Shown: positions 29,594-43,374, numbered from the stretch's first letter. The stretch is DNA of 64,000 nt from Bradymonadia bacterium (GCA_046290225.1 JBKAGE010000053.1:1-64000); one strand, 5' to 3'. Made by a program: numbers and translations. Notes: generated from the letters alone by a model not told the origin.

Positions 29594-30841
29594 TCAGCCG
29601 CCCATCGACTCCAGGAACTCACCGTTGTCGGCGGTCTTGGAGATCTTGCCCAGCATGAACTCCATCGAGTCCACCACGTTGAGGGGGTGGAGCAGCTGAC
29701 GGAGGATCCAGATGCGGTTGAGGGCCGTGGGCTCGAGGAGCAGCTCTTCCTTACGGGTGCCCGACTTGTTGATGTCGAGGCAGGGGAAGATGCGCTTCTC
29801 CATGAGCTTGCGGTCGAGGTGCAGCTCGGCGTTACCGGTGCCCTTGAACTCCTCGAAGATCACCTCGTCCATGCGGGAGCCGGTGTCGATGAGGGCCGTG
29901 GCGATGATGGTCAGGCTGCCGCCCTCTTCGATGTTGCGGGCCGCACCGAAGAAGCGCTTGGGCTTGTGCAGAGCGTTGGAGTCGACACCACCGGAGAGGA
30001 TCTTGCCTGAGGGGGGCACCACGGTGTTGTAGGCGCGGGCCAGGCGGGTGATCGAGTCGAGCAGGATCACCACGTCGCGCTTGTGCTCCACGAGGCGCTT
30101 GGCCTTCTCGATGACCATCTCGGCCACCTGCACGTGACGCTGGGCGGGCTCGTCGAAGGTCGACGAGACCACCTCGCCCTCGACCGAACGCTCCATGTCG
30201 GTCACCTCTTCCGGGCGCTCGTCGATGAGCAGCACGATGAGGTACACCTCGGGGTGGTTCTCCACGATGGCGTTGGCGATGTTCTGCATCAGCACCGTCT
30301 TACCGGCACGGGGGGGCGACACGATGAGCGCGCGCTGGCCCTTGCCGATGGGGCAGAGCAGATCGACGATGCGGGTGCTGAAGTTCCGGGGGTGGTACTC
30401 CAGCTTCAGGCGCTCGTCGGGGTAGAGGGGGGTGAGGTTGTCGAAGAGGATCTTCGACTTGGTGGCCTCGGGGGGCTGGAAGTTGATCTGCTCCACCTTG
30501 AGCAGCGCGAAGTAGCGCTCGGACTCTTTGGGGGGGCGGATCTGCCCGGCGATGGTGTCGCCGGTGCGCAGGCCGAAGCGGCGGATCTGAGACGGCGACA
30601 CGTAGATGTCGTCGGGTCCGGGCAGGTAGTTGTAATCGGGTGCCCGGAGGAAGCCGAAGCCGTCAGGCAGGATCTCGAGGACCCCTTCACCGAAGATGGG
30701 CTCGTTCTTTTTGGTCTGGGCGTTGAGGATCGAGAAGATCAGCTCCTGCTTGCGCAGGCCCGAGGAGTTCTCGACGCCCATGTTGCGCGCCATGGCGGCG
30801 AGCTCGGCGATCTTCAGCTGCTTCAGCTCTCTGAGGTTCAT
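29594..30841 (-). CDS. rho: Transcription termination factor Rho
   Basis: [54 protein letters not shown]. Confidence 0.98.
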
Positions 30842-31402: not shown

Positions 31403-33604
31403 ATGAACACCCCCCCGAGACGCTCTGGTGAGTACGTACCTCAGCTGCGCCCTTCCATTGCAGGGGAGCGGCAAGAGGTACACGCCGAGCTCGATGCCTT
31501 CGAGACGTCGATCGATCGATTCCTCGATGGCAAGGTCCCCGAAGCCAGCTTTTTGGAATTCCGACTGCGTCATGGGGTTTATGGTCAGCGGCAAGATGGC
31601 GTGCACATGATGCGGTCGAAGTTGCCCCTGGGCTTGCTGGCCCCGGAGCAGCTCGAGTCGTTCGCCGATCTCACCGAGGCGTACACCGCTGGCGTGGCGC
31701 ACCTGACCACCCGCCAGGACATTCAGGTGCACTTCATCCCCTTGAAGAAGACTCCTGATTTGATGCGGGTGCTCGCCGAGGCGGAGATGACCAGCCGCGA
31801 GGCCTGCGGGAACGTAGTGCGCAACGTCTGCGCCTCTGAGGCTGCCGGCGTCGAGCCTGGTGAGGCCTTCGACGTGACCCCCTATGGCATGGCCCTCGCC
31901 CGGTTCCTGCTGCGCCATCCCTCGGGCCAGAGCCTCGGTCGCAAGTTCAAGATCACCCTCGCGGGATCCTTCGATCCCTACTTCAACACCGGACCGATCC
32001 ACGACATCGGCGCCACTGCGGTGATCCGTGACGGCGTGCGCGGGTTCCACGTGGTGGTGGGCGGTGGCCTCGGTGCAGTGCCTCACGAAGCGCAGTTGCT
32101 CACCGACTTCATGCCCGTGGCGGAGCTGTTCCCCACGGCGGTGGCCATGCTCCGCATCTTCGCCCGGCACGGTGAGAAGAAGAAGCGTGCTCGGGCCCGG
32201 ATGAAGTTCCTCGTGGCCAAATGGGGCATCGAGAAGTTCCGCGAAGAGGTGGCCAGGGAGCGGGCCCTGCTCCGCAACGACGAGCTGGGCACAGAGTTCC
32301 TGGAGAACCTCGGCCAGTGGGACGATCAGCCGATCCATCCGCCCGCCGAGCAGTTCCCCGTGGGGGCCACCCCTGAAGAGACCACCTGGCTGCGGACCAA
32401 CGTGTTCCGCCAGAAGCAGGCGGGCTATGCCGCTGTTCGGGTCCGGGTGCCTCGCGGTGATCTGGTGCCCGACCAGCTGCGGGGGCTGGCGAACCTTCTG
32501 CGGGCCCACAGCGGTGACACCATGCGCATCGCCGCTGATCAGTCCCTGTTCATCCGCTGGGTGCCCTTCGATCACTTGCTCGAGCTCAAGGCTGGCCTCG
32601 AGGCCCTGGGCCTCGGTCAGGCCCGGGCGGGTGGCCTCGGCGATACGGTGACCTGCCCAGGGTCCGACTCGTGCAAGCTGGGCATCACCTCGCCCCGCTC
32701 TGTGGCCCGCCACATCGAGGCGCGCATCGACGCCCTCGCAGAAGACACGCGCCTTGAGCGTCTGCGCATCAAGATCTCGGGTTGCCCGAACTCCTGTGCT
32801 CAGCATCAGACTGCCGACATCGGCTTGTACGGCGCCACCCGGACCATCGCCGGCCGCGCCGCGCCTCACTACATGCTCTACCTCGGCGGTCGCCCTGGTG
32901 GCATGCGCCTCAACGCGGAGATCGGCGGCTTCGGCCTGCACGTGGGCCGCGTGCCCGCGCTTCGAGTGGGCGAGGTGGTGGAGCTGCTGCTGAAGACCTT
33001 CATCGAAGAGTCAGATGCTGGCGAAGAGTTCGCCCTCTGGGTGTACCGCACGGGCCGCGTGGCGATTCAGAACCTCATCCGCCCCCTGACGGTGCTGCCG
33101 AAGCCCGACGAAGACGGCCGCTTCTACAGCGAGGTGGGTGAGAGCGAGCCCTTCTCCATCGTCCGTGGGGTGGGGGAGTGCGCCGGCGAAGTGGTCCTCG
33201 CTGCAGATCTGCTGATGGTGGAGGCCGACACCCAGACGGAGCGCGCTACGCAAGGCTTCGACGAAGAGGCGGATCGCGATTTGATCATCACCTCGGCCCG
33301 AGAGGCCATGGTCTATGCCGCCCGGGCCCTCATGGCCACTCAGGGGGTGAACGAGGCGGATCCGGCCCACGTGGTGGAGGCCTTCAAGGGGGCCTTCTAC
33401 GACACCGGCCGCATCTACGAGGGCGTGGGCCACTACTTCCTGCAGAGTCAGGCTGAAGCCCGCGACACCGTGGTGGGCGATCGCCTGCGTCGTCTGGTGG
33501 CGGAGTCGGCCCTCTTCGTGGAAGAGGCCCACACGATCCTGGCCAAGATGCGGGCGACCTCTGTCCTCGACGATCTCGCGGCCTTTGGCGGGCCGGCATC
33601 ATGA
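31403..33604 (+). CDS. Assimilatory sulfite (or nitrite) reductase hemoprotein with C-terminal HEPN-like extension
   Basis: RLRHGVYGQRQ, HLTTRQDIQ, ACGNVVRN, RKFKI, CPGSDSCKLG and SGCPNSCAQH siroheme/[4Fe-4S] ligands; cys operon context. Confidence 0.88.
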   Translation: MNTPPRRSGEYVPQLRPSIAGERQEVHAELDAFETSIDRFLDGKVPEASFLEFRLRHGVYGQRQDGVHMMRSKLPLGLLAPEQLESFADLTEAYTAGVAHLTTRQDIQVHFIPLKKTPDLMRVLAEAEMTSREACGNVVRNVCASEAAGVEPGEAFDVTPYGMALARFLLRHPSGQSLGRKFKITLAGSFDPYFNTGPIHDIGATAVIRDGVRGFHVVVGGGLGAVPHEAQLLTDFMPVAELFPTAVAMLRIFARHGEKKKRARARMKFLVAKWGIEKFREEVARERALLRNDELGTEFLENLGQWDDQPIHPPAEQFPVGATPEETTWLRTNVFRQKQAGYAAVRVRVPRGDLVPDQLRGLANLLRAHSGDTMRIAADQSLFIRWVPFDHLLELKAGLEALGLGQARAGGLGDTVTCPGSDSCKLGITSPRSVARHIEARIDALAEDTRLERLRIKISGCPNSCAQHQTADIGLYGATRTIAGRAAPHYMLYLGGRPGGMRLNAEIGGFGLHVGRVPALRVGEVVELLLKTFIEESDAGEEFALWVYRTGRVAIQNLIRPLTVLPKPDEDGRFYSEVGESEPFSIVRGVGECAGEVVLAADLLMVEADTQTERATQGFDEEADRDLIITSAREAMVYAARALMATQGVNEADPAHVVEAFKGAFYDTGRIYEGVGHYFLQSQAEARDTVVGDRLRRLVAESALFVEEAHTILAKMRATSVLDDLAAFGGPAS

Positions 33605-35130
33605 GCCGCCCGGCGAACATCGCCCCGGTGCAGGGTGGGGGCTCGCTGCTCCTGGCCTGGCGTCTGAAGGGTCGCACTGCCCTGGTGGTAGGCGGCGGTG
33701 AGGTGGCCGCGGGCCGGGTGGTCCGGGCCCTGGAGGCCGACGCCAGGGTGGTGTTGGTGGCCCCTCGCATCAACGCTGAGCTCACGCGCCGGGTGCAGGC
33801 AGGTGAGATCGAGTGGCGTGAGCGCAAGTGGTGCTTCTGTGATCTGTACGGCGCCGCCATGGTGATGACCGCCATCGATGATCCAGTGGTCTCTCGGCAA
33901 ATCGCCGAGCTCTGCCGAAACCGCGGGATCCCGGTGAACGTCGCCGATGTGCCGCCGCTCTGTGACTTCTGGTTCGCGAGCATGTACCGCGATGGCCCGG
34001 TGCAGATCGCCATCAGCACCAACGGCAAGGGCCCCGCCATCGGCTCTCGCCTGGCGCAGGAGCTGGGCTCGATGTTGCCGGCGGGCCTGGGCCAGCTGGT
34101 CGAGCACTTCGGCACGTTGCGCAAGGCTGTGCGCAAGGTCGACCCGGAGCCTTCTTCGGGGCCGCGGCGCATGTCGTGGCTGGGCCGCCTGGCCCGGACC
34201 TGGCCCTACGAGGCCCTCGGTCGCTTGCAGGTGGAGCCGCTGATCAAGGAATACCGGCGCGGTGGCGAGCCCCCGGAGCCACCCAAGGGTCGACGCCCGG
34301 AGCGTGACGCACCTGTGGCGCACTTCGCCGGCGCAGACGATCTGCCGGTCATCTCATTGGTGGGCGCTGGCCCTGGTGATCCGGGCTTGCTCACTGTGGC
34401 CGGCGCCGAAGCTCTGGCCCAGGCCGACCTCGTGGTGGCCGACCGCCTCATCGCCCCTGAGATCCTCGACCTCGTCACCGGCGAGTTGCGCATCGCCCGC
34501 AAACTGCCCGGTCGCGCTGACGAGGCTCAGCGCGAGCTGGAGGATTGGGTGCTCGAAGGGGCCCGAGCGGGCCGCCACGTGGTGCGACTCAAGGCCGGTG
34601 ATCCCTTCGTCTTCGGCCGGGGCACTGAAGAGATCGAACGCTTTACCGCCGAGGGCTTCGGTGTACGGGTGGTGCCGGGCATCAGCAGCGCCCTCGCAGG
34701 CCCGCTGCTCGGGGGCATGCCTCCTACGGCCCGAGGCGTTGCTGATCGCGTGCAGGTGCTCACCGCTCAGCTCAAGGGCGGCGGCTGGCCCGAGATGCCT
34801 GCCTACGACGCAGGCTGCACGCAGGTGATTTTGATGGGCGTGGGCCGTGCGGCAGAGATCAGCCGCCGCCTCATCGCCGCCGGGCACCCCGCAGATCGCC
34901 CGGTGGCCTTCGTGGAGCGTGCTTCCCAGCCGGGGCAACGCACCACCCTGACCACCCTCGAACAGATGGGCGAGGCGGTTCAACGCCACGGCATCCGGGC
35001 GCCGGCGGTCATCGTCATCGGCGACGTGGTGCAGTTCGCCACCCGCTTCGACAATCGCGCCGACGGTCAGGTCGACCGCGCGTCCGAGTCTCGATTCGAA
35101 CGGCCCCTGCAGGCCGCAGGAGGTACTTGA
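33601..35130 (+). CDS. cysG: Siroheme synthase (dehydrogenase/ferrochelatase + SUMT)
   Basis: LVVGGGEVA, VNVADVP.LCDF, ISTNGKGP; LVGAGPGDPGLLT, RLKAGDPFVFGRG, VPGISS. Confidence 0.92.
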   Translation: MSRPANIAPVQGGGSLLLAWRLKGRTALVVGGGEVAAGRVVRALEADARVVLVAPRINAELTRRVQAGEIEWRERKWCFCDLYGAAMVMTAIDDPVVSRQIAELCRNRGIPVNVADVPPLCDFWFASMYRDGPVQIAISTNGKGPAIGSRLAQELGSMLPAGLGQLVEHFGTLRKAVRKVDPEPSSGPRRMSWLGRLARTWPYEALGRLQVEPLIKEYRRGGEPPEPPKGRRPERDAPVAHFAGADDLPVISLVGAGPGDPGLLTVAGAEALAQADLVVADRLIAPEILDLVTGELRIARKLPGRADEAQRELEDWVLEGARAGRHVVRLKAGDPFVFGRGTEEIERFTAEGFGVRVVPGISSALAGPLLGGMPPTARGVADRVQVLTAQLKGGGWPEMPAYDAGCTQVILMGVGRAAEISRRLIAAGHPADRPVAFVERASQPGQRTTLTTLEQMGEAVQRHGIRAPAVIVIGDVVQFATRFDNRADGQVDRASESRFERPLQAAGGT

Positions 35131-35873
35131 TGAATGCCCCCAACATCACCGTAGAGGGCTGGGCTGGGGTGGACGTCTCCAGCGCCGAGGCCATCATCGC
35201 CCGGGCCATCGATCTGTATCACCCGGCTCTCACCATCGCCTCGAGCTTCAGCCACGAAGACGTGCTGCTCATCGACATGGCGGTGGCCCATCGCGCCGAT
35301 GTGCGGGTCTTTGCCCTCGACACAGGCCGCTTGCCAGAAGAGACCTACGCCTGCGCCGAGGCCGTACGGGCGCGATATGGCCTGGAGATCGAGTGGTACG
35401 CCCCTGATCGCGACGATCTCGAGGCCCTGATTCGCGATCAGGGCCTCTACAGCTTCAAAGAGAGCCTCGACGCCCGCCACGCCTGCTGCGCCGTGCGCAA
35501 GGTGGGCCCTCTGAAGCGGGCCCTCGCCGGCAAGAAGGCCTGGGTGACGGGTCAACGCCGCAGCCAGAGCGTCACCCGCGCGACGTTGTCTCCCGTGGAG
35601 GCGTCAGACTCGGGGCCCATCAAGATCAACCCCCTCGCCGATTGGAGCCTCGAGCAGGTCCAGGCAGAGGTGAAGGCCCGCGGGCTGCCCTACAACGCCC
35701 TCTACGACCAGGGCTACCGCTCCATCGGCTGCGCGCCGTGCACGCGAGCGGTGCTGCCCGGCGAGGACGAGCGGGCGGGCCGCTGGTGGTGGGAGCAGGC
35801 GGAGCACAAAGAGTGCGGGCTCCATGGCCGGCCGGGTTTCGAACATCTTTCTTCTGACACTTCACGAGGGTGA
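35130..35873 (+). CDS. cysH: Adenylyl-sulfate reductase, [4Fe-4S] APS reductase type
   Basis: LDTGRL, CCAVRKV, TGQRRSQS, SIGCAPCT, RAGRWWWE, ECGLH. Confidence 0.92.
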   Translation: MNAPNITVEGWAGVDVSSAEAIIARAIDLYHPALTIASSFSHEDVLLIDMAVAHRADVRVFALDTGRLPEETYACAEAVRARYGLEIEWYAPDRDDLEALIRDQGLYSFKESLDARHACCAVRKVGPLKRALAGKKAWVTGQRRSQSVTRATLSPVEASDSGPIKINPLADWSLEQVQAEVKARGLPYNALYDQGYRSIGCAPCTRAVLPGEDERAGRWWWEQAEHKECGLHGRPGFEHLSSDTSRG

Positions 35874-35877
35874 TCCC

Positions 35878-36801
35878 ATGAACGCAAACCTCAAGCCTCG
35901 GTCGGGGCGCTCACCCACGGCCCTCGACGAGCTCGAGGCCGAGGGGATCCACATCCTGCGGGAGGTGGTGGCCCAGGCCCGAAACCCGGTGATCTTGTTC
36001 TCCGGGGGCAAAGACTCGATCTGTGTGCTGCACCTTGCCCGCAAGGCCTTCTGGCCTGGGAAGTTCCCTTTCCCGCTGCTGCACATCGACACCGGCCACA
36101 ACTTCGACGAGGTGATCGAGTTCCGCGATCGCCGCGCCGCGGAGCTGGGCGCCACGCTGCACGTGCGCACCGTGGAAGACGCCATCGCCAAAGGCATCGC
36201 GGTGCCCACCCCTGGTGTGGTGAGCCGCAACCGCCTGCAGTCGCCAACGCTGCTCTCCGCCCTCGAGGAGTTCGAGTTCGACGCCGCCGTCGGTGGCGCC
36301 CGCCGCGACGAAGAGAAAGCCCGGGCCAAGGAGCGCATCTTCTCGTTCCGCGACGCCTTCGGCCAGTGGGAGCCCCGCAAGCAGCGCCCCGAGCTCTGGA
36401 ACGTCTACAACGCGCGGCTGCACCCCGGCGAGCAGGTCCGGGCGTTCCCCCTGAGCAACTGGACCGAGCTCGACGTCTGGGCCTACATCCGCCGAGAGGG
36501 CCTCGAGGTGCCGTCGATCTACTTCAGCCACACCCGCGAGGCGGTGAAGCGCAGCGGTCAGTGGCTGCCGGTGAACGACATCGAGCCCCTGCAGGCCGGT
36601 GAAGAGACCACCACCCGCCAGTTCCGGGTGCGCACCATCGGCGACATCATCTGCACCGGCCTGGTGGAGTCCCCCGCCGCCGACATCCACGCCATCGTCG
36701 ACGAGGTGGCCCGAGCCCGAGTGACCGAGCGCGATGGCCGCGCCGACGATCAAGGCTCCGAGACCTCGATGGAAGACCGCAAGCGAGAGGGGTACTTCTG
36801 A
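35878..36801 (+). CDS. cysD: Sulfate adenylyltransferase subunit 2
   Basis: FSGGKDS, HIDTGHNF, GGARRDEEKARAKERIFS, QRPELW, SMEDRKREGYF. Confidence 0.96.
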   Translation: MNANLKPRSGRSPTALDELEAEGIHILREVVAQARNPVILFSGGKDSICVLHLARKAFWPGKFPFPLLHIDTGHNFDEVIEFRDRRAAELGATLHVRTVEDAIAKGIAVPTPGVVSRNRLQSPTLLSALEEFEFDAAVGGARRDEEKARAKERIFSFRDAFGQWEPRKQRPELWNVYNARLHPGEQVRAFPLSNWTELDVWAYIRREGLEVPSIYFSHTREAVKRSGQWLPVNDIEPLQAGEETTTRQFRVRTIGDIICTGLVESPAADIHAIVDEVARARVTERDGRADDQGSETSMEDRKREGYF

Positions 36802-38138
36802 TGCACGCCAACGCCTATCACGAGACCTCCGGGCACACCGTACGCGACGCCACAGAGGCCACCCTTGAGGTGACCGCCGAGGCCGGCCCCGATGCCACCG
36901 CAGAGGCGGAGTCCATCTCCCGGCTGCGCTTCATCACCGCCGGCAGCGTCGACGACGGCAAGAGCACCCTCATCGGTCGCTTGCTCTACGACAGCAAGTC
37001 GCTCTTCGACGATCAGGTGGCGGCCCTCGAGAAGCGCTTTGATCTCGCCCGTCTCACCGACGGTCTGCGGGCGGAGCGGGAGCAGGGCATCACCATCGAC
37101 GTGGCCTGGCGTTACTTCGCTACGCCCCATCGTCGCTTCGTCATCGCCGACTGCCCCGGACACGTGCAGTACACCCGGAACATGATCACTGGGGCCTCTC
37201 ACGCCGAGGTGGCGGTGCTGTTGGTCGACGCCCGCCACGGGGTCGTCGAGCAGACCCGGCGGCACGCCTTCATCGCCGCCCGCCTGGGCCTGAGCCACAT
37301 CGTGTTCTGCGTGAACAAGATGGATCTCGTCGACTTCGACGAGGGGCGGTTCGACACCCTCGAGGCAGAGCTTGAGGCCATGGCCACCACCCTCGGTGTG
37401 CCCGCCATCACGGTGCTGCCCATCAGCGCCCTCGAAGGCGACAACGTGGTGAGCCGCAGCCCCCGTACCCCCTGGTACGATGGCCCCGCGCTGCTCGAGC
37501 TGCTCGAGCGCATCGAGGTGGTCCACCGTCCGAACCTGGGCCCCGACGCCCCAGCCCGCTTGCCGGTGCAGGTGGTGATCCGCCCGGAAGAGGACGGCCG
37601 ACCGGAAGATCGCCGTTACGCCGGCACGGTGGCCTCGGGCACCCTCAACGTCGGGGACGAGGTGGTGGTGTTGCCCTCGGGTCAGACCACGCGCATCTCG
37701 GCCATCGACACCTTCGATGGTGGGTTGCAGCAGGCCGTGGCCGGTGAGGCTGTGGCCGTGGGCCTCGCCGACGTGCTCGACGTGGGCCGCGGCGCGGTCA
37801 TCGCCCCCGTGAGCGGCGCGCCCACGGCGACGCAGTCACTGACGGCGACGGTGTGTTGGATGGGCCACCGCCCGCTGACCCCGGGCTCCACCTGGGTGGT
37901 GCAGCATGGCACCACGGAAGCCCGCTGCAAGGTGGCTGCGGTGGACCATCAGATCGATCTGGAGACGCTGCAGCCTGCGGAGGCAAGCCAGCTGGCCCTC
38001 AACGATCTGGGCCGGGTGCGTTTGAAGGTGTCGGTGCCCCTGGCCGCCGACGGTTTCACCGATGTGCAGGCCACAGGGCGCTTCATCATCATCGATCCCT
38101 CGACCCACGAGACCGTGGGCGCGGCCTTGGTGGAATAA
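36801..38138 (+). CDS. cysN: Sulfate adenylyltransferase subunit 1 (no APS kinase domain)
   Basis: GSVDDGKSTLIGRLL, EREQGITID, DCPGH, NKMD, ISALEGDNV. Confidence 0.95.
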   Translation: MHANAYHETSGHTVRDATEATLEVTAEAGPDATAEAESISRLRFITAGSVDDGKSTLIGRLLYDSKSLFDDQVAALEKRFDLARLTDGLRAEREQGITIDVAWRYFATPHRRFVIADCPGHVQYTRNMITGASHAEVAVLLVDARHGVVEQTRRHAFIAARLGLSHIVFCVNKMDLVDFDEGRFDTLEAELEAMATTLGVPAITVLPISALEGDNVVSRSPRTPWYDGPALLELLERIEVVHRPNLGPDAPARLPVQVVIRPEEDGRPEDRRYAGTVASGTLNVGDEVVVLPSGQTTRISAIDTFDGGLQQAVAGEAVAVGLADVLDVGRGAVIAPVSGAPTATQSLTATVCWMGHRPLTPGSTWVVQHGTTEARCKVAAVDHQIDLETLQPAEASQLALNDLGRVRLKVSVPLAADGFTDVQATGRFIIIDPSTHETVGAALVE

Positions 38139-38324: not shown

Positions 38325-40676
38325 ATGGCTCGATATCAATCCCCACGTATTCGGTGGCTGGTGGCCGCTCTTGCCGCAGGGTGTCTGTTTGTGGGCAGTC
38401 AGCTGACGGGCATCGATGCTGCCCATGCCCAGGTGCCCGAGCTGCTCAATCACCAGGGCCGTTTGCTCGACGCCGGGCAGGTGCCCATCACGGGCACTCG
38501 AACCCTGACCTTCGCGGTGTACGACAGCCCTGAAGGTGGAGAGCTGCTCTGGTCAGAGACTCAAGATGAGGTGCTCTTCCAGAACGGCTACTACGCGGTC
38601 ACGTTGGGCCAGCAGGGGGGCTTCCCCACAGAGATCGCTGCGGACTCTGGTCTTTATCTGGAGATCACCGTCGAGGATGAGCACCTCAGCCCGCGCCTGC
38701 CCATGGGCTCGGCGCCTTTTGCCCTGGCGGCTGGCGTCGCGGACGACGTCACTGGAGACATCAACCCCCGCTCGGTGAGCATCGGCGGTCAGCTGGTGAT
38801 CGATGCCGAGGGTCGCTGGGTGGGTGAGGTGATGGGCCTCGAGGGCCCGCAGGGTGAGCCTGGGGCGCAGGGCCCCGCTGGCCCTCAGGGCGAGCAAGGC
38901 CCTGCAGGGCCACAAGGTGAGCCCGGTGAGCCCGGGCCGCAGGGCGAGCAAGGCCCAGTGGGTCCTGCCGGGCCTCAAGGCGAGCGGGGCTTGCAAGGTC
39001 TACCGGGCGCTCTAGGGGCTCAGGGTGATCAGGGCCCCATTGGCCCGGTGGGGCCTTCAGGGCCTCAGGGTGAGCAGGGCCCTCAGGGTTTGCGGGGTGA
39101 GCAGGGGCCTGTTGGCCCTCAAGGTCTTCAGGGTGAGCAGGGGGCCGACGCGGATCCAGAGGTGATCGCCCAGCTCCTTCTCGAAGATGCTGACCTTCGA
39201 ACTGCAGTGACGGAACTGCTCTTCGAGCAATACAGCGCCGAGCTGAGAGGTCCTCAAGGCGAGCAAGGCATCCAGGGCGCTGACGCTGATCCCAACGTGG
39301 TGGCCGGCTTGCTCAGTGAAAACAACGCGTTCTTGGAGCTCGTCGCCTTGGCCCTCGCCATTGACTATGCCGACGAGCTGCGTGGCGCACCGGGCGTCCC
39401 TGGTCCCCAGGGCCCTCAGGGTGAGCAGGGTCTTCAAGGCCCACAGGGCTCAGAAGGCCCTCAAGGCCCCGCGGGATCAGTGGCAGATCCTCAGGACGTG
39501 GCCGACATCCTGGCGGAGGACGAGCAGTTCAACGCGGGGGTGGCCGAGCGCTTCTTCAATGACTTTGGTGACGCCATCCGTGGTGACGAGGGTCCCGAAG
39601 GCCCTCAGGGCCCTGTGGGTCCAGAGGGTCCCCAAGGTGAGCAGGGTGTCCAAGGCCTTCAAGGTGAGCAGGGCGCTCCCGGACCTCAAGGGCCTCAGGG
39701 CGAAGTTGGCCCTGCTGGCTCCGTGGGGCCCGAGGGGCCTCTGGGTCCTCAGGGAGAGCCAGGGCCCGAGGGTCCTGTGGGGCCCGCTGGCCCTCAGGGT
39801 GATCAGGGGCCCCAAGGTGATCAAGGCATTCAAGGTCCCGCAGGCGCACAGGGGGATCAGGGCGAGCAAGGGCCTCAGGGTGAGCAAGGCATTCAGGGCG
39901 AGCAAGGCGTTCAGGGCGAGCAAGGCCCTGCCGGTCCTCAGGGCCCTGCCGGGCCTCAGGGCCCTGCCGGTGACGGGATCCCCGATGGGGTGGTCATGCC
40001 CTTCGCACTGGAGAGCTGCCCCGCAGGCTGGGCACCTGCAGATGGCACCAACGGCACCCCGGATCTCCGTGGGCGCGTACCCATGGGCGTGGGTACTCTG
40101 CCTGGTGCCGAAGCCCCCAACACCATCGCCCTGGGACAGGCTGGTGGCTCCAGCCGCTACCGGGTCTTCGCGCAGCGCAACCTGGTGGCCCTCGGCAACA
40201 ACGATCGCGCCATCCAAGGCACGGGCCTGCGCTGGTTCGGTGACGACGATCAGCAAGAGTCGGTGTCTTTCGCCAACAACGACGCCAACGCCGACAGCGG
40301 CGATCAAGAGGGCGGGATGGCCCGTCACCTGCCGCCGTATGTGGGTCTGCTGTACTGCGTGAAGGGCGTGCAGGCGCCGTCGACGCCCACGTTCGCCGCC
40401 GAGGTGACCGACATCTTCGCGGCCCGGTGCAATGTCTGCCACAACGCGAACTTCTCGTCTGGCGGCCTGGACTTGTCTTCTTACAATGCTGCGCTGAGTG
40501 GTGGGATCTCCGGGCCTCTCGTGGACGCTGGAGGTGATCCAGCGGCGTCGGAGCTGATCCGTCGAGTGCGTGCGCTCGATGGCGCGCCCTTGATGCCTCA
40601 GGGCGGCCCGGCACTGGGTGAGGCCGACATTCTCACGCTGGAGGCGTGGATCAGCGGAGGTGTACCGGAGAACTGA
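38325..40676 (+). CDS. Secreted collagen-like fibre with phage tail-collar domain and C-terminal cytochrome c domain
   Basis: Signal peptide AHA-Q; long Gly-X-Y tracts; [30 protein letters not shown] (40428-40442) and distal LMP. Confidence 0.85.
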
Positions 40677-40784: not shown

Positions 40785-42374
40785 CTACGCCCACAAAACC
40801 TCGACCCGTCGTGCCGAGGTCGTCTCGTGTACTTCGAATCGAGTCTGCGGAACATCCGCCAGCGCTGCCTGCCGTTGGTCGAAAATCACCATCCAGCCAG
40901 AGTCGAGTGACAGTGCCTGCAGATAGCGTTCGATCTGCGTCAGCGCATCTGGCAGCGGGTTGCCCCGGGAGGCCCAACGTTTGATCTCGATGACCTCTTG
41001 TTGCACATGGTGGGCGTCACCATGGATGGGCCAGCGGACATAGACATCCACCGAGCCTCGACCGAGGCCGTATTCTCGATCGATGAACCCCCCGCCGTTC
41101 ACCACTCTCTGCAAAAATGCCATCAAGATGATGTGAGGTGTCGCTTCGGGGTAGGTCACCCCGCGCTGAGTCAGGCCACGGCCGTGTTGGCGCCAAAAAT
41201 CAGCGAAAGCGTCCATCGCTCCGCGCATGTCGAAGCGCCCGTCGGGTAATATGAAGCGTGCCGGCTCCACCGCGATTTGGGGCTCGTAGTTCGCGGTGAG
41301 CCCACGGATGATCACTTCACGATAGATCGGGTTCGCCGGGCGTGCTGGATAGTCTCGGGCGATGAGACCCAGATCCCGCACATAGCTGAAGTCATCGTTG
41401 TAGGTGAAGTCCTGAGTCGCTGTTTGGGCTGATGGTTCCGTGATCAGGGGCGCCAGTACACGCTGGACCGCTGGCTCGTGCAGCCTAGCCACCAGAGAGT
41501 CCAGATGTGTGGCCCGGGCTAGGATCAAACGCTCTTTGGCCCGCTCAATGTCTGCTGCCGTGATCGTCCCTGTGACGCCCATCGCGTAGAGCACCTCGGC
41601 GGCGAGGCTGTTCACCAACCACGGTTGGCCTTGAGTCAGCTCGAAGGCTCGGGCTCTGGCTGCCTCGTCGAATCTCTGACCTGTCTCTTCTGTGTGTTGA
41701 GTGTAAAGGGTGTCGACTTCATCAGCGGTGAAGTTGTCCAACACCAAGGAGGTCACTTTGATGTTGAAAGGACTCGAGGTGCCAAACCGAGAGGTGTCTG
41801 CACCACTCGCGGCTCTATAGTCGCGTACGTCTCGCAGACCACACAAAGCCACCGACCATGGAGCGTGATCTGGTCGGTTGTCGTAGCCCATGCGCAACTG
41901 CCGCAGAACCGAGACGAGGCTTTGACCTCTCAGGGCGTCGATCTCATCGAAGAACAAGGCGAGCGGCTTTGGGCATGCGGCGGCCCAGCGCCTGAGGAAA
42001 GTGAGCAACAAGCTCCCGTCAGGCAGGTTGCCTGCCTCTGTGTCTGGAGGGTGAAGCCTCAAAGGCAGCTGGCTCTCCGCTTCCAGCCTGATGCTTTGGA
42101 TGATGATCTTCTGTGCTTCGGCGTAGTCGTCTGCAGCGGCCTCTCCTGCTTCGCACGAGAAGTAGAGCGCGGCGAACCGCCCCTCCGAGTTGAGCTGTCG
42201 GGCCACATGTTTGAGGGTGGTGGTCTTCCCAGTCTGTCGTGGCGCATGCACGACGAAGTATTTACCGCGCCGGACCAGATCAGGCACCTCTGCCAGTCGG
42301 CTCAGAGCTGGCACCATGTAGTGGTCGCGCCCATTACATGGGCCGGTGGTGTTGAACTCTTTGGGCAGATCCAT
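40785..42374 (-). CDS. AAA-like ATPase with C-terminal PD-(D/E)XK nuclease-like domain
   Basis: FNTTGPC start, APRQTGKTT Walker A, FFDEID Walker B, REYGLGRGSVD...VIEIK. Confidence 0.8.
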   Translation of the reverse strand: MDLPKEFNTTGPCNGRDHYMVPALSRLAEVPDLVRRGKYFVVHAPRQTGKTTTLKHVARQLNSEGRFAALYFSCEAGEAAADDYAEAQKIIIQSIRLEAESQLPLRLHPPDTEAGNLPDGSLLLTFLRRWAAACPKPLALFFDEIDALRGQSLVSVLRQLRMGYDNRPDHAPWSVALCGLRDVRDYRAASGADTSRFGTSSPFNIKVTSLVLDNFTADEVDTLYTQHTEETGQRFDEAARARAFELTQGQPWLVNSLAAEVLYAMGVTGTITAADIERAKERLILARATHLDSLVARLHEPAVQRVLAPLITEPSAQTATQDFTYNDDFSYVRDLGLIARDYPARPANPIYREVIIRGLTANYEPQIAVEPARFILPDGRFDMRGAMDAFADFWRQHGRGLTQRGVTYPEATPHIILMAFLQRVVNGGGFIDREYGLGRGSVDVYVRWPIHGDAHHVQQEVIEIKRWASRGNPLPDALTQIERYLQALSLDSGWMVIFDQRQAALADVPQTRFEVHETTSARRVEVLWA

Positions 42375-42483
42375 GAAGTGGAGTCTACTGGTGCGCGCCT
42401 CGGAGCGTCCAGGCGACTGCGTGTCATTGAACTTTTTCGCCCCTCGTGCGTGAGTACCCGAGCCACCCACTCGGAGTACCTGA

Positions 42484-43374
42484 ATGAAGCACCTGCTCGC
42501 GATCTGCGCCCTCGCCCTCGCTGCCACCACAGGCACCGCCATCGCGTGTTTGCACCCCGGCAACCCCTCGGTCCAGCTCGTCGAGACCGGTCAGAAAGCC
42601 CTCATCATGTATGCCGATGGTCGCGAGGAGCTGATCATCAAGGTCGACTACGCCGGCTATGCTGCGCCTGGGCCCCTTGCTTGGGTCGTGCCTACACCTT
42701 CGGTGCCTGATCATTACGCCGAGACCGATCCGGCGCTCTTCGACGAGCTGCATCGACTCACCCAGCCTCCACAGCCGCGGAGCAAGGGGCTGCGCTCGAA
42801 GTCGAAGTCGGCAGCGCCTGCGATGTTGATCATGCATCAGCCCGTGAATGTAGGGACGTACACCATTCAACCCATCGGCGCCTCGGGGCCGGAGGCTGGC
42901 CCTGCCTTGAACACGTGGCTCAAGTCCAACGGCTTTGGCGAGGTACCCGAGGCCAACATGAAGTGGTACCTCGATAAAGGGTGGACCTTCCTGGCCATCA
43001 AGACCGAAGCCAACGAGCCCAAGGGTGGCCTCAAGCCTCTGCGCATCTCGTTTGCTGCCGATCGGCTGTGGTACCCGCTGAAGTTCAGCAGCCACCAGGG
43101 GGACTTCCCCGTCACCGTGTATACCCTCACCAAGGAGCGGTTGAAGCCTGAGGCAATTGCGGGATTGCCCGGTGGGTTCAAGGCTGTGGGGCAGGCCCGA
43201 ATCGTCGGTGGGGTAGGGACCTCTGCCCTGAAATTGCTCATGGCCGAGATCGCCAAAGAGGGGCGCCTCATGATTGGGCGAGGCCACCTGCGTCGGCTGC
43301 AGTCCAGGCGGGTCAACACTCAGGCAGACCCCGTCGCCAAGTGGCCTGAGGACTTCTCCATCGCAGCGCCCTGA
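42484..43374 (+). CDS. Secreted DUF2330-like protein
   Basis: Signal peptide AIA-C; QKALI, AWVVPTPSVP, LFDEL, VGTY, LNTWLKSNGF, YLDKGWTFLAIK, PLRISF. Confidence 0.7.
   Translation: MKHLLAICALALAATTGTAIACLHPGNPSVQLVETGQKALIMYADGREELIIKVDYAGYAAPGPLAWVVPTPSVPDHYAETDPALFDELHRLTQPPQPRSKGLRSKSKSAAPAMLIMHQPVNVGTYTIQPIGASGPEAGPALNTWLKSNGFGEVPEANMKWYLDKGWTFLAIKTEANEPKGGLKPLRISFAADRLWYPLKFSSHQGDFPVTVYTLTKERLKPEAIAGLPGGFKAVGQARIVGGVGTSALKLLMAEIAKEGRLMIGRGHLRRLQSRRVNTQADPVAKWPEDFSIAAP

Follow-up and report, generated by a model that had tools for sequence, protein, structure and literature searches.

A PSCyt1-type cytochrome c domain fused behind the tail-collar domain of a predicted collagen-like fibre in a Bradymonadia bacterium

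Locus, signal peptide and N-terminal domain

The window analysed here, a stretch of 64,000 nucleotides, is the first part of contig C53 (71.8 kb) in the genome of a Bradymonadia bacterium (8.58 Mb, 99.4% complete, 2.2% contaminated). One of its genes, P0001, encodes a protein of 783 amino acids in which a signal peptide, an N-terminal domain (N-domain), a Gly-X-Y stalk, a collar, a linker and a cytochrome domain follow one another (Table 1). The frame contains neither a stop codon nor a frameshift, and all motifs quoted in a preliminary description of the gene were recovered in it. The domain order, the in-frame fusion and an intact heme-binding motif are evident in the sequence. Named homologues of the fibre and of some lineage-type heme proteins were mostly labelled Myxococcota or Myxococcales.

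Directly upstream of P0001 lies a sulfate-assimilation operon (31403-38138) with a sulfite reductase-like gene, cysG, cysH, cysD and cysN, all named from their translations; the cysN product was confirmed as an EF-Tu-type GTPase. Farther upstream, rho (29594-30841) was likewise named from its translation. Downstream, a convergent gene for an AAA ATPase (40785-42563) has a longest frame that ends about 110 nt from the stop of the fibre gene. No sign of a link between the sulfate-assimilation operon and the fibre was found, and no genes for redox, porin or export partners lie beside the fibre gene. A scan for promoters and terminators returned no promoter-like site and four terminator-like sites, all of them within the reading frame.

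Table 1. Positions of the fibre gene and its features, numbered from the first nucleotide of the window
Feature	Position	Strand	Remarks
Fibre gene P0001	38325..40676	+	whole gene
Predicted Sec signal peptide	38325..38429	+	aa 1-35; basic n-region, hydrophobic core, AHA then Q; read from sequence
MAT-like N-terminal domain	38430..38840	+	aa 36-172; NF053851 match, under cut-off
Collagen-like stalk	38835..39977	+	Gly-X-Y tracts of 35, 4, 11 and 44 triplets
Interrupter 1	39150..39248	+	33 aa, ADPEV...AELR; helical pattern inferred from sequence
Interrupter 2	39285..39383	+	33 aa, ADPNV...DELR
Interrupter 3	39483..39581	+	33 aa, ADPQD...DAIR
Phage tail-fibre-type collar	39978..40364	+	aa 552-680, opening half to closing strand
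Beta-rich insert in collar	40155..40325	+	aa 611-667, 57 aa; AF2 strands, pLDDT ~55-70
Linker GVQAPS	40365..40382	+	six residues, where other collars of the subfamily stop
PSCyt1-type monoheme cytochrome c domain	40383..40673	+	aa 687-783
Heme-binding motif C702-N-V-C705-H706	40428..40442	+	CxxCH, intact
Met757, predicted distal heme ligand	40593..40595	+	same in 20/20 aligned domains

Hydrophobic windows of 19 residues were confined to the predicted signal peptide. A lipoprotein reading of LAAGC was ruled out by eye; a paralogue lacks the Cys. The N-domain had been likened to the N-terminus of phage-fibre-like adhesins of Bdellovibrio. Homology to the N-domain of the MAT fibres stood up to the search (E 4e-7 with the NCBIfam model Bdello_MAT_N, NF053851), and membership by score did not: the match reached 24.7-29.9 bits, and the best one in the host genome 30.6, against a cut-off of 60. 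At E ≤ 0.001 the same model matched 37 of 75 family N-domains (best 6e-9) and none in 14 control genomes. Comparison of the N-domain profile with the PDB gave no meaningful match, and a scan of genome contigs with the N-domain produced a single weak, unrelated one.

The MAT (mosaic adhesive trimer) fibres of Bdellovibrio bacteriovorus are likewise described as beginning with a signal peptide and a homologous domain of ~130-140 amino acids, and as forming sets of many paralogues per genome with a constant base and swappable C-terminal tips (PMC10769870); the supplement of that paper lists homologues in Bradymonadaceae and Myxococcales. By analogy with the role inferred there, the N-domain is likely to be a cell-surface anchor. 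The present fibre differs from MATs in an N-domain score of half the family cut-off and in its stalk, which is collagen here and a beta-helix in MATs. Pfam found no S74 domain in the fibre, and the S74 chaperone is also absent from the MAT subgroup NS74. The fibre would work like a MAT and is not classed as one. The terms collagen and collar do not occur in the main text of PMC10769870 as available, nor do cytochrome, heme, collagen or collar in the two supplement files searched; according to the accessible parts of the paper, none of the 21 HD100 MAT tips is a cofactor-binding domain.

Stalk, collar knob and cytochrome domain

The stalk was recognised by the Pfam Collagen model above its cut-off (E 7e-40). 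Its 94 triplets correspond to a length of ~80-81 nm (at 0.286 nm per residue), and it is strongly acidic, with 56 acidic versus 7 basic residues. The three interrupters are each exactly 33 amino acids long and run from ADP to ELR or AIR; Pfam named no family for them. Similar segments occur many times in the host paralogue P0002 and in some relatives. Electron transfer reaches ~1.5-2 nm per hop. Because of this limit, collagen without cofactors cannot carry electrons over 80 nm, and conduction along the stalk is excluded. For the redox sensing proposed in the preliminary description, the insulating 80-nm stalk leaves no visible route by which a signal could pass.

The assignment of the following region as a tail-collar domain was upheld by several comparisons. 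The Pfam Collar model (PF07484) scored 22.3 bits, just under its cut-off of 24, and matched with profile positions 1-21 of 57 only. Profile searches recovered 9QGO, a trimeric tail fibre (E 6e-12), and 6OV6 (E 3e-6), both deposited as three chains. Fold comparison gave low Z scores for the collar, 3.8-4.4 overall and 3.8-4.0 for T4 gp12, T4 gp37, Pa223 and C24. The two T4 proteins scored 3.9-4.0, and for gp12 (Z 3.9) 50 residues were aligned with an rmsd of 2.5 and 34% identity. Residues 25-157 of the model aligned with about 50 residues extending from the start of the collar to the chain end in gp37 (811-1026) and gp12 (337-526). Collagen and collar together make it likely that the fibre is trimeric.

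Phage and eCIS collar fibres (T4 gp12 1OCY, T4 gp37 2XGF, Bizionia C24 6OV6, 9QGO and 8ON5) share the opening motif with the present collar and have, behind an insert, a closing strand of the LPPY type. In contrast to these proteins, the present collar sits on a probably secreted bacterial collagen, contains an unrelated insert and is followed by a cytochrome past the closing strand, where phage and eCIS chains end. An AF2 model of the collar-plus-cytochrome monomer (pLDDT 64.5, pTM 0.38) has the insert between an opening strand at aa 557-560 and a closing strand at aa 675-680; in the alignment behind this model, ~12 residues of 10 rows were misplaced and three fragments of the query were among the rows. 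For neither model did Foldseek return a match at E ≤ 0.001. In the ESM Atlas, collar plus cytochrome gave no feature match, and the structure matches (TM 0.40-0.43) rest on the cytochrome part only.

In the collar-ended tail-fibre trimers T4 gp37, gp12, Pa223 and C24 the chain goes out to the tip and returns, with its C-terminus at the base. Two reviews consulted mention the collar and the needle and give no position for the C-terminus. With such an out-and-back course predicted for the present collar as well, the cytochromes should emerge on the stalk side, with the hemes under the knob. Judged from the low-Z fold matches and this topology, the three hemes are likely to ring the stalk around the last collagen turns rather than to sit at the apex. 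The fibre had been described as tipped with a cytochrome; the domain comes after the closing strand of the collar and is predicted at the stalk-side collar base. The outer end would be formed by the collar insert, which varies between homologues and is the predicted candidate for a binding surface.

By sequence, the C-terminal domain belongs to the cytochromes. Pfam PSCyt1 (PF07635) matched at aa 702-758 with 37-41.8 bits, exceeding the cut-off of 22. C702, C705, H706, G737, M757, P758 and W775 were unchanged in 20 of 20 aligned domains, and the nearest homologues showed 42-52% identity. The AF2 model of the heme domain (pLDDT 93.9) resembled FoxE (5MAB; Z 11.2, rmsd 2.5, 98 aligned residues) and then PccH (4RLR; Z 7.5), with the next match at Z 4.3. 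FoxE has His/Met ligation (PMC10654088). A CxxCH motif, a conserved downstream Met and the FoxE-like fold are common to this domain, the PSCyt1 family, FoxE and PccH. These data bear out the earlier view of a PSCyt1-like cytochrome c with conserved His/Met ligands, and the proposed check on conservation found CxxCH and the distal Met invariant. No tested function of PSCyt1 was found in the accessible part of the literature searched. For heme c maturation the host genome encodes CcmE and three PF01578 proteins, and GspD was also found over its cut-off; gspD is located no more than 30 kb from the ccm genes (C34:259455-285731). The genome further contains 27 reading frames with three or more CxxCH motifs, one of which has 31 (C38:146077-149121).

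Distribution and origin of the fusion

Read coverage over the collar-cytochrome junction had been named as the check for a chimera. A 172-nt contig of run X1 covers positions 40313-40484 with three differences at a depth of 2.7, reaching 52 nt into the collar side and 102 nt into the cytochrome side. This bridging makes a misassembled junction unlikely; it consists of one low-depth contig from one study, which may share a sampling campaign with the assembly. Across the gene, X1 gave only patchy coverage of 2-3x, so that it was probably not the source of the assembly. At 40432 it reads A>C, which converts N703, a free position of CxxCH, to T and at depth 2.7 may be an error. In third-position GC content, the cytochrome part (0.745) differs little from the N-domain and the collar (0.78-0.80). 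An artefact could be suspected from the absence of the exact protein from a collection of 15 billion sequences, in which the paralogue P0002 is present, and from a junction common to no relative. We consider it very improbable in view of the in-frame fusion with a clean linker on a long contig of a largely complete and little contaminated genome, of the bridging X1 contig, and of the heme-part DNA, which has no match elsewhere in the host genome that could have served as the source of a mis-join.

The host genome contains 11 reading frames with the N-domain. Their C-terminal ends are all different, except for the collar common to P0001 and P0002, and CxxCH occurs in P0001 and in none of the ten paralogues. 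P0002 (contig C76) has the same base, a similar interrupted collagen and a collar with 69% identity, and stops three residues after CVK without a heme domain. Across the family, the N-domain gave 269 matches in 26 of 28 genomes, with up to 40 per genome. Of these 269, the 150 matches listed included 145 from outside the host, which yielded 146 reading frames in 23 genomes, 129 of them closed by a stop codon. Among these 146 reading frames from the matches listed, 111 had collagen and 7 a collar; none had a cytochrome module or a canonical CxxCH, and one had a CxxxxCH-like string. In a scan of 137 family C-terminal parts, the tips recognised were mainly Fibrinogen_C (22), RCC1 (14), COLFI (13), LamG (4), P-domain (3) and F5/8 (2), and no cytochrome was found among the 25 families listed. 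By its sequences, the fibre family behaves as a library of adhesins with swappable tips.

A family-wide collar profile matched 11 times, in 8 of 28 genomes. Ten of these matches were strong: one is P0001, and the other nine end no more than three residues past the closing strand. The single weak match runs on for 327 amino acids, and its fetched part contains no CxxCH. A canonical collar also occurs as a protein of its own (PF07484, 107 bits; C77:128183-128719, L168), encoded right after a collagen fibre that has the N-domain and no collar. On the matched strand, no cytochrome module was found in the best 79 of at least 227 confirmed metagenome collar loci or in 80 of 202 viral ones. Two viral collar reading frames with CRPCH were ruled out as cytochromes. 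A junction-spanning query against 113 genomes of the class matched the host genome only. A complete HMMER search of 1.84 billion representatives produced 9053 matches, and each of the 150 listed covers one half of the protein or the other. Among 310 proteins compared, 272 had the heme module, and only P0001 added an N-domain, a collar or collagen. The collagen-collar-cytochrome architecture was not found among the papers listed in literature searches with limited coverage of subscription journals. The architecture, presented earlier as possibly new, is rare: it was absent from the 146 relatives' fibres among the matches listed, from nine other strong collars and from 159 metagenome and viral loci. 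The cytochrome on a collagen-collar fibre is a class of cargo absent from every other member examined.

In the host genome, the heme module itself is a habitual C-terminal add-on. It is C-terminal in 16 of the 18 host reading frames that carry it, on scaffolds of the lamin-tail, DUF1592, Ig-like and sugar-dehydrogenase types. A lamin-tail-domain lipoprotein of 1712 amino acids (C37:163293) bears two copies of a PSCyt1-like module. The fusion partners seen for PSCyt1 were DUF1549/1553, WD40, Ig-like, fn3, PKD and lamin-tail domains. As the module sits elsewhere on strings of Ig-like, fn3 and PKD domains, stalked cytochromes as such are no novelty, and the module's C-terminal position on unrelated scaffolds in most host carriers indicates that a chance fusion is easy.

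Within the family, the closest relatives of the fibre heme domain were the second domains of a conserved diheme lipoprotein, most of which have CxxxxCH. This lipoprotein is encoded upstream of a porin-like gene, and the pair is conserved in the family (C37:359886-362095, L154; also L008, L010, L011 and L014). The porin-like protein has two N-terminal CxxCH motifs on a barrel, no Pfam match and Atlas look-alikes in Myxococcota and Bdellovibrionota; the lipoprotein and the heme-capped porin-like protein are a candidate outer-membrane electron conduit. In a tree of 29 rows (the fibre, 12 lipoprotein-type rows and 16 others chosen mostly by nearness; 62 of 91 rows were dropped), the second domains of the lipoprotein formed a clade with 98/96 support. 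The fibre domain fell outside it, as a sister at 90/82, which is not decisive. A quick tree of all 91 rows, for which the careful search was unfinished, left the fibre heme domain unplaced. A recent copy from the host's own diheme lipoprotein was ruled out by 44% identity and the missing DNA match. Recent local duplication is not supported, since the heme part has no DNA match in the genome and lies outside the 98/96 clade. Most likely the fusion arose once, when the heme module, a habitual addition to secreted proteins in this lineage, took the place of the stop codon in a collar-ended fibre.

As one gene in one genome, the fusion may be an evolutionary accident, and a singleton offers no argument from conservation for a selected function. 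The heme module may have landed in frame on an ordinary collar-ended adhesin and been tolerated there, probably binding heme, with nothing selected. A passenger of this kind would fit the promiscuity of the module, its occurrence in only one of the fibres examined, the heme-less paralogue P0002 and the lack of partner genes nearby, whereas all invariant residues are kept at 42-52% identity, no recent DNA-level source exists in the genome, and the one listed X1 difference inside the domain concerns a free CxxCH position, with the reservation on depth given above. These counter-arguments are moderate, because the motif would be intact as well if the module had been gained recently from a donor that was not sampled. 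We rate a mere passenger as somewhat unlikely.

Possible roles of the fibre and its predicted heme domain

Our preferred reading, held tentatively and at slightly less than an even chance, is an adhesin fibre with a local contact-redox module, in which collar knob and cytochrome are combined and three His/Met hemes would swap electrons with the gripped surface. The chains would be exported by Sec and receive their hemes in the periplasm from the Ccm system. The collar would then nucleate the trimer, and the collagen would zip afterwards. The folded protein would be exported, possibly by type II secretion, and anchored by the N-domain as proposed for MAT fibres. About 80 nm out, the collar insert would bind a particle, a mineral or the surface of prey. 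Arranged as a ring close below the binding end, the hemes would exchange single electrons locally with the gripped object. Their resetting would fall to diffusible partners or to the bound surface, with no electrons conducted by the stalk.

In favour of contact redox we counted the intact and diverged heme domain, the presence of maturation and export machinery, and a link between fibres and DHOR proteins in the family. At C4:32066-37513 (L171) a gene for an N-domain fibre is followed directly by two genes for diheme proteins of the DHOR family (PF06537). The second of these encodes a lipoprotein with a short collagen linker, of 18 triplets in the host and 0-20 in relatives (L344-L361). The DHOR pair occurs in 8 of 27 relatives, with one further partial case, and a homologous fibre gene lies upstream at 6 of the 8 loci. 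This conserved fibre-plus-diheme operon possibly serves oxidative modification of the fibre. Counted against contact redox were the singleton status of the fusion, the paralogue P0002 without heme, the promiscuous module, the lack of adjoining partner genes, and the weak collar-cytochrome model and collar fold scores given above. Contact redox chemistry at the fibre is plausible from its sequence and no more than that, and the passenger is a serious rival, the strongest of the alternatives, because the fusion is a singleton and the module a habitual C-terminal add-on.

If the fibre bent at its three interrupters, the swinging hemes could also act as a tethered shuttle in energy metabolism, carrying electrons between a cytochrome-porin of the outer membrane and the mineral or cell that is bound. 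A precedent is PgcA of Geobacter, for which tethered-diffusion electron transfer over ~18 nm has been described (PMC11520253, PMC10570954). These 'heme-tethered redox strings' likewise have extracellular monoheme domains, low-complexity tethers and three hemes per particle. PgcA is, as described there, a monomeric lipobox-exported chain with three heme domains and Pro-Thr linkers, ~18-20 nm long, whereas the present fibre has one CxxCH per chain, a predicted ~80-nm triple helix and an adjoining adhesin knob, and is not a multi-cytochrome chain. The stalk would exceed the reach of PgcA about fourfold, and one heme per chain provides little capacity. The nearest family homologues are domains of the diheme lipoprotein encoded upstream of the two-heme-capped porin-like gene, which fits a shuttle, against which stands the 90/82 support for this sister relation. 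The many multiheme reading frames of the genome and the closest fold, that of FoxE, a putative iron oxidase, fit as well, whereas the excess of acidic residues would probably lead to repulsion by an anionic cell surface, and a respiratory device should be conserved rather than confined to one gene. A tethered shuttle is distinctly unlikely in our judgement.

The heme domain might, without redox function, aid the folding, stability or export of the fibre end, like the S74 domain of MATs or TfcP. A myxobacterial case of a cytochrome c linked to an adhesin is TfcP of Myxococcus xanthus, which is reported to stabilise the adhesin PilY1.1 without electron transport (PMC8833165), and the C-terminal position of the heme domain corresponds to that of S74 (PMC10769870). 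TfcP differs in being a separate periplasmic protein that acts on PilY1.1, with the heme domain of the fibre placed in cis, and in its His/Cys ligation (PMC8833165), where the fibre domain keeps the Met of its homologues. Furthermore, nine other strong collars of the family manage without a domain of this kind in cis, their chains stopping at the closing strand. A helper of this kind appears improbable.

In the boldest reading, a MAT-like adhesin has become a redox probe or a shuttle with a swinging arm. Its three c-type hemes, positioned ~80 nm out beside the knob, would exchange electrons with gripped minerals or prey and be reset by bending back to a cytochrome-porin. We regard this reading as unlikely. 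If true, it would add a third way of contacting remote electron partners to nanowires and strings of the PgcA type, and the fibre would be the first member of any mosaic adhesin library to carry a cofactor; no covalently bound redox cofactor on a mosaic adhesin fibre was found in any search made here. The host genome provides a built-in control in the close paralogue P0002, which lacks the heme domain only, and the small, well-modelled heme domain is an easy entry to PSCyt1, a widespread heme module. The exchange of binding tips is a known property of mosaic adhesin libraries, and a redox cofactor would extend them from recognition to contact chemistry.
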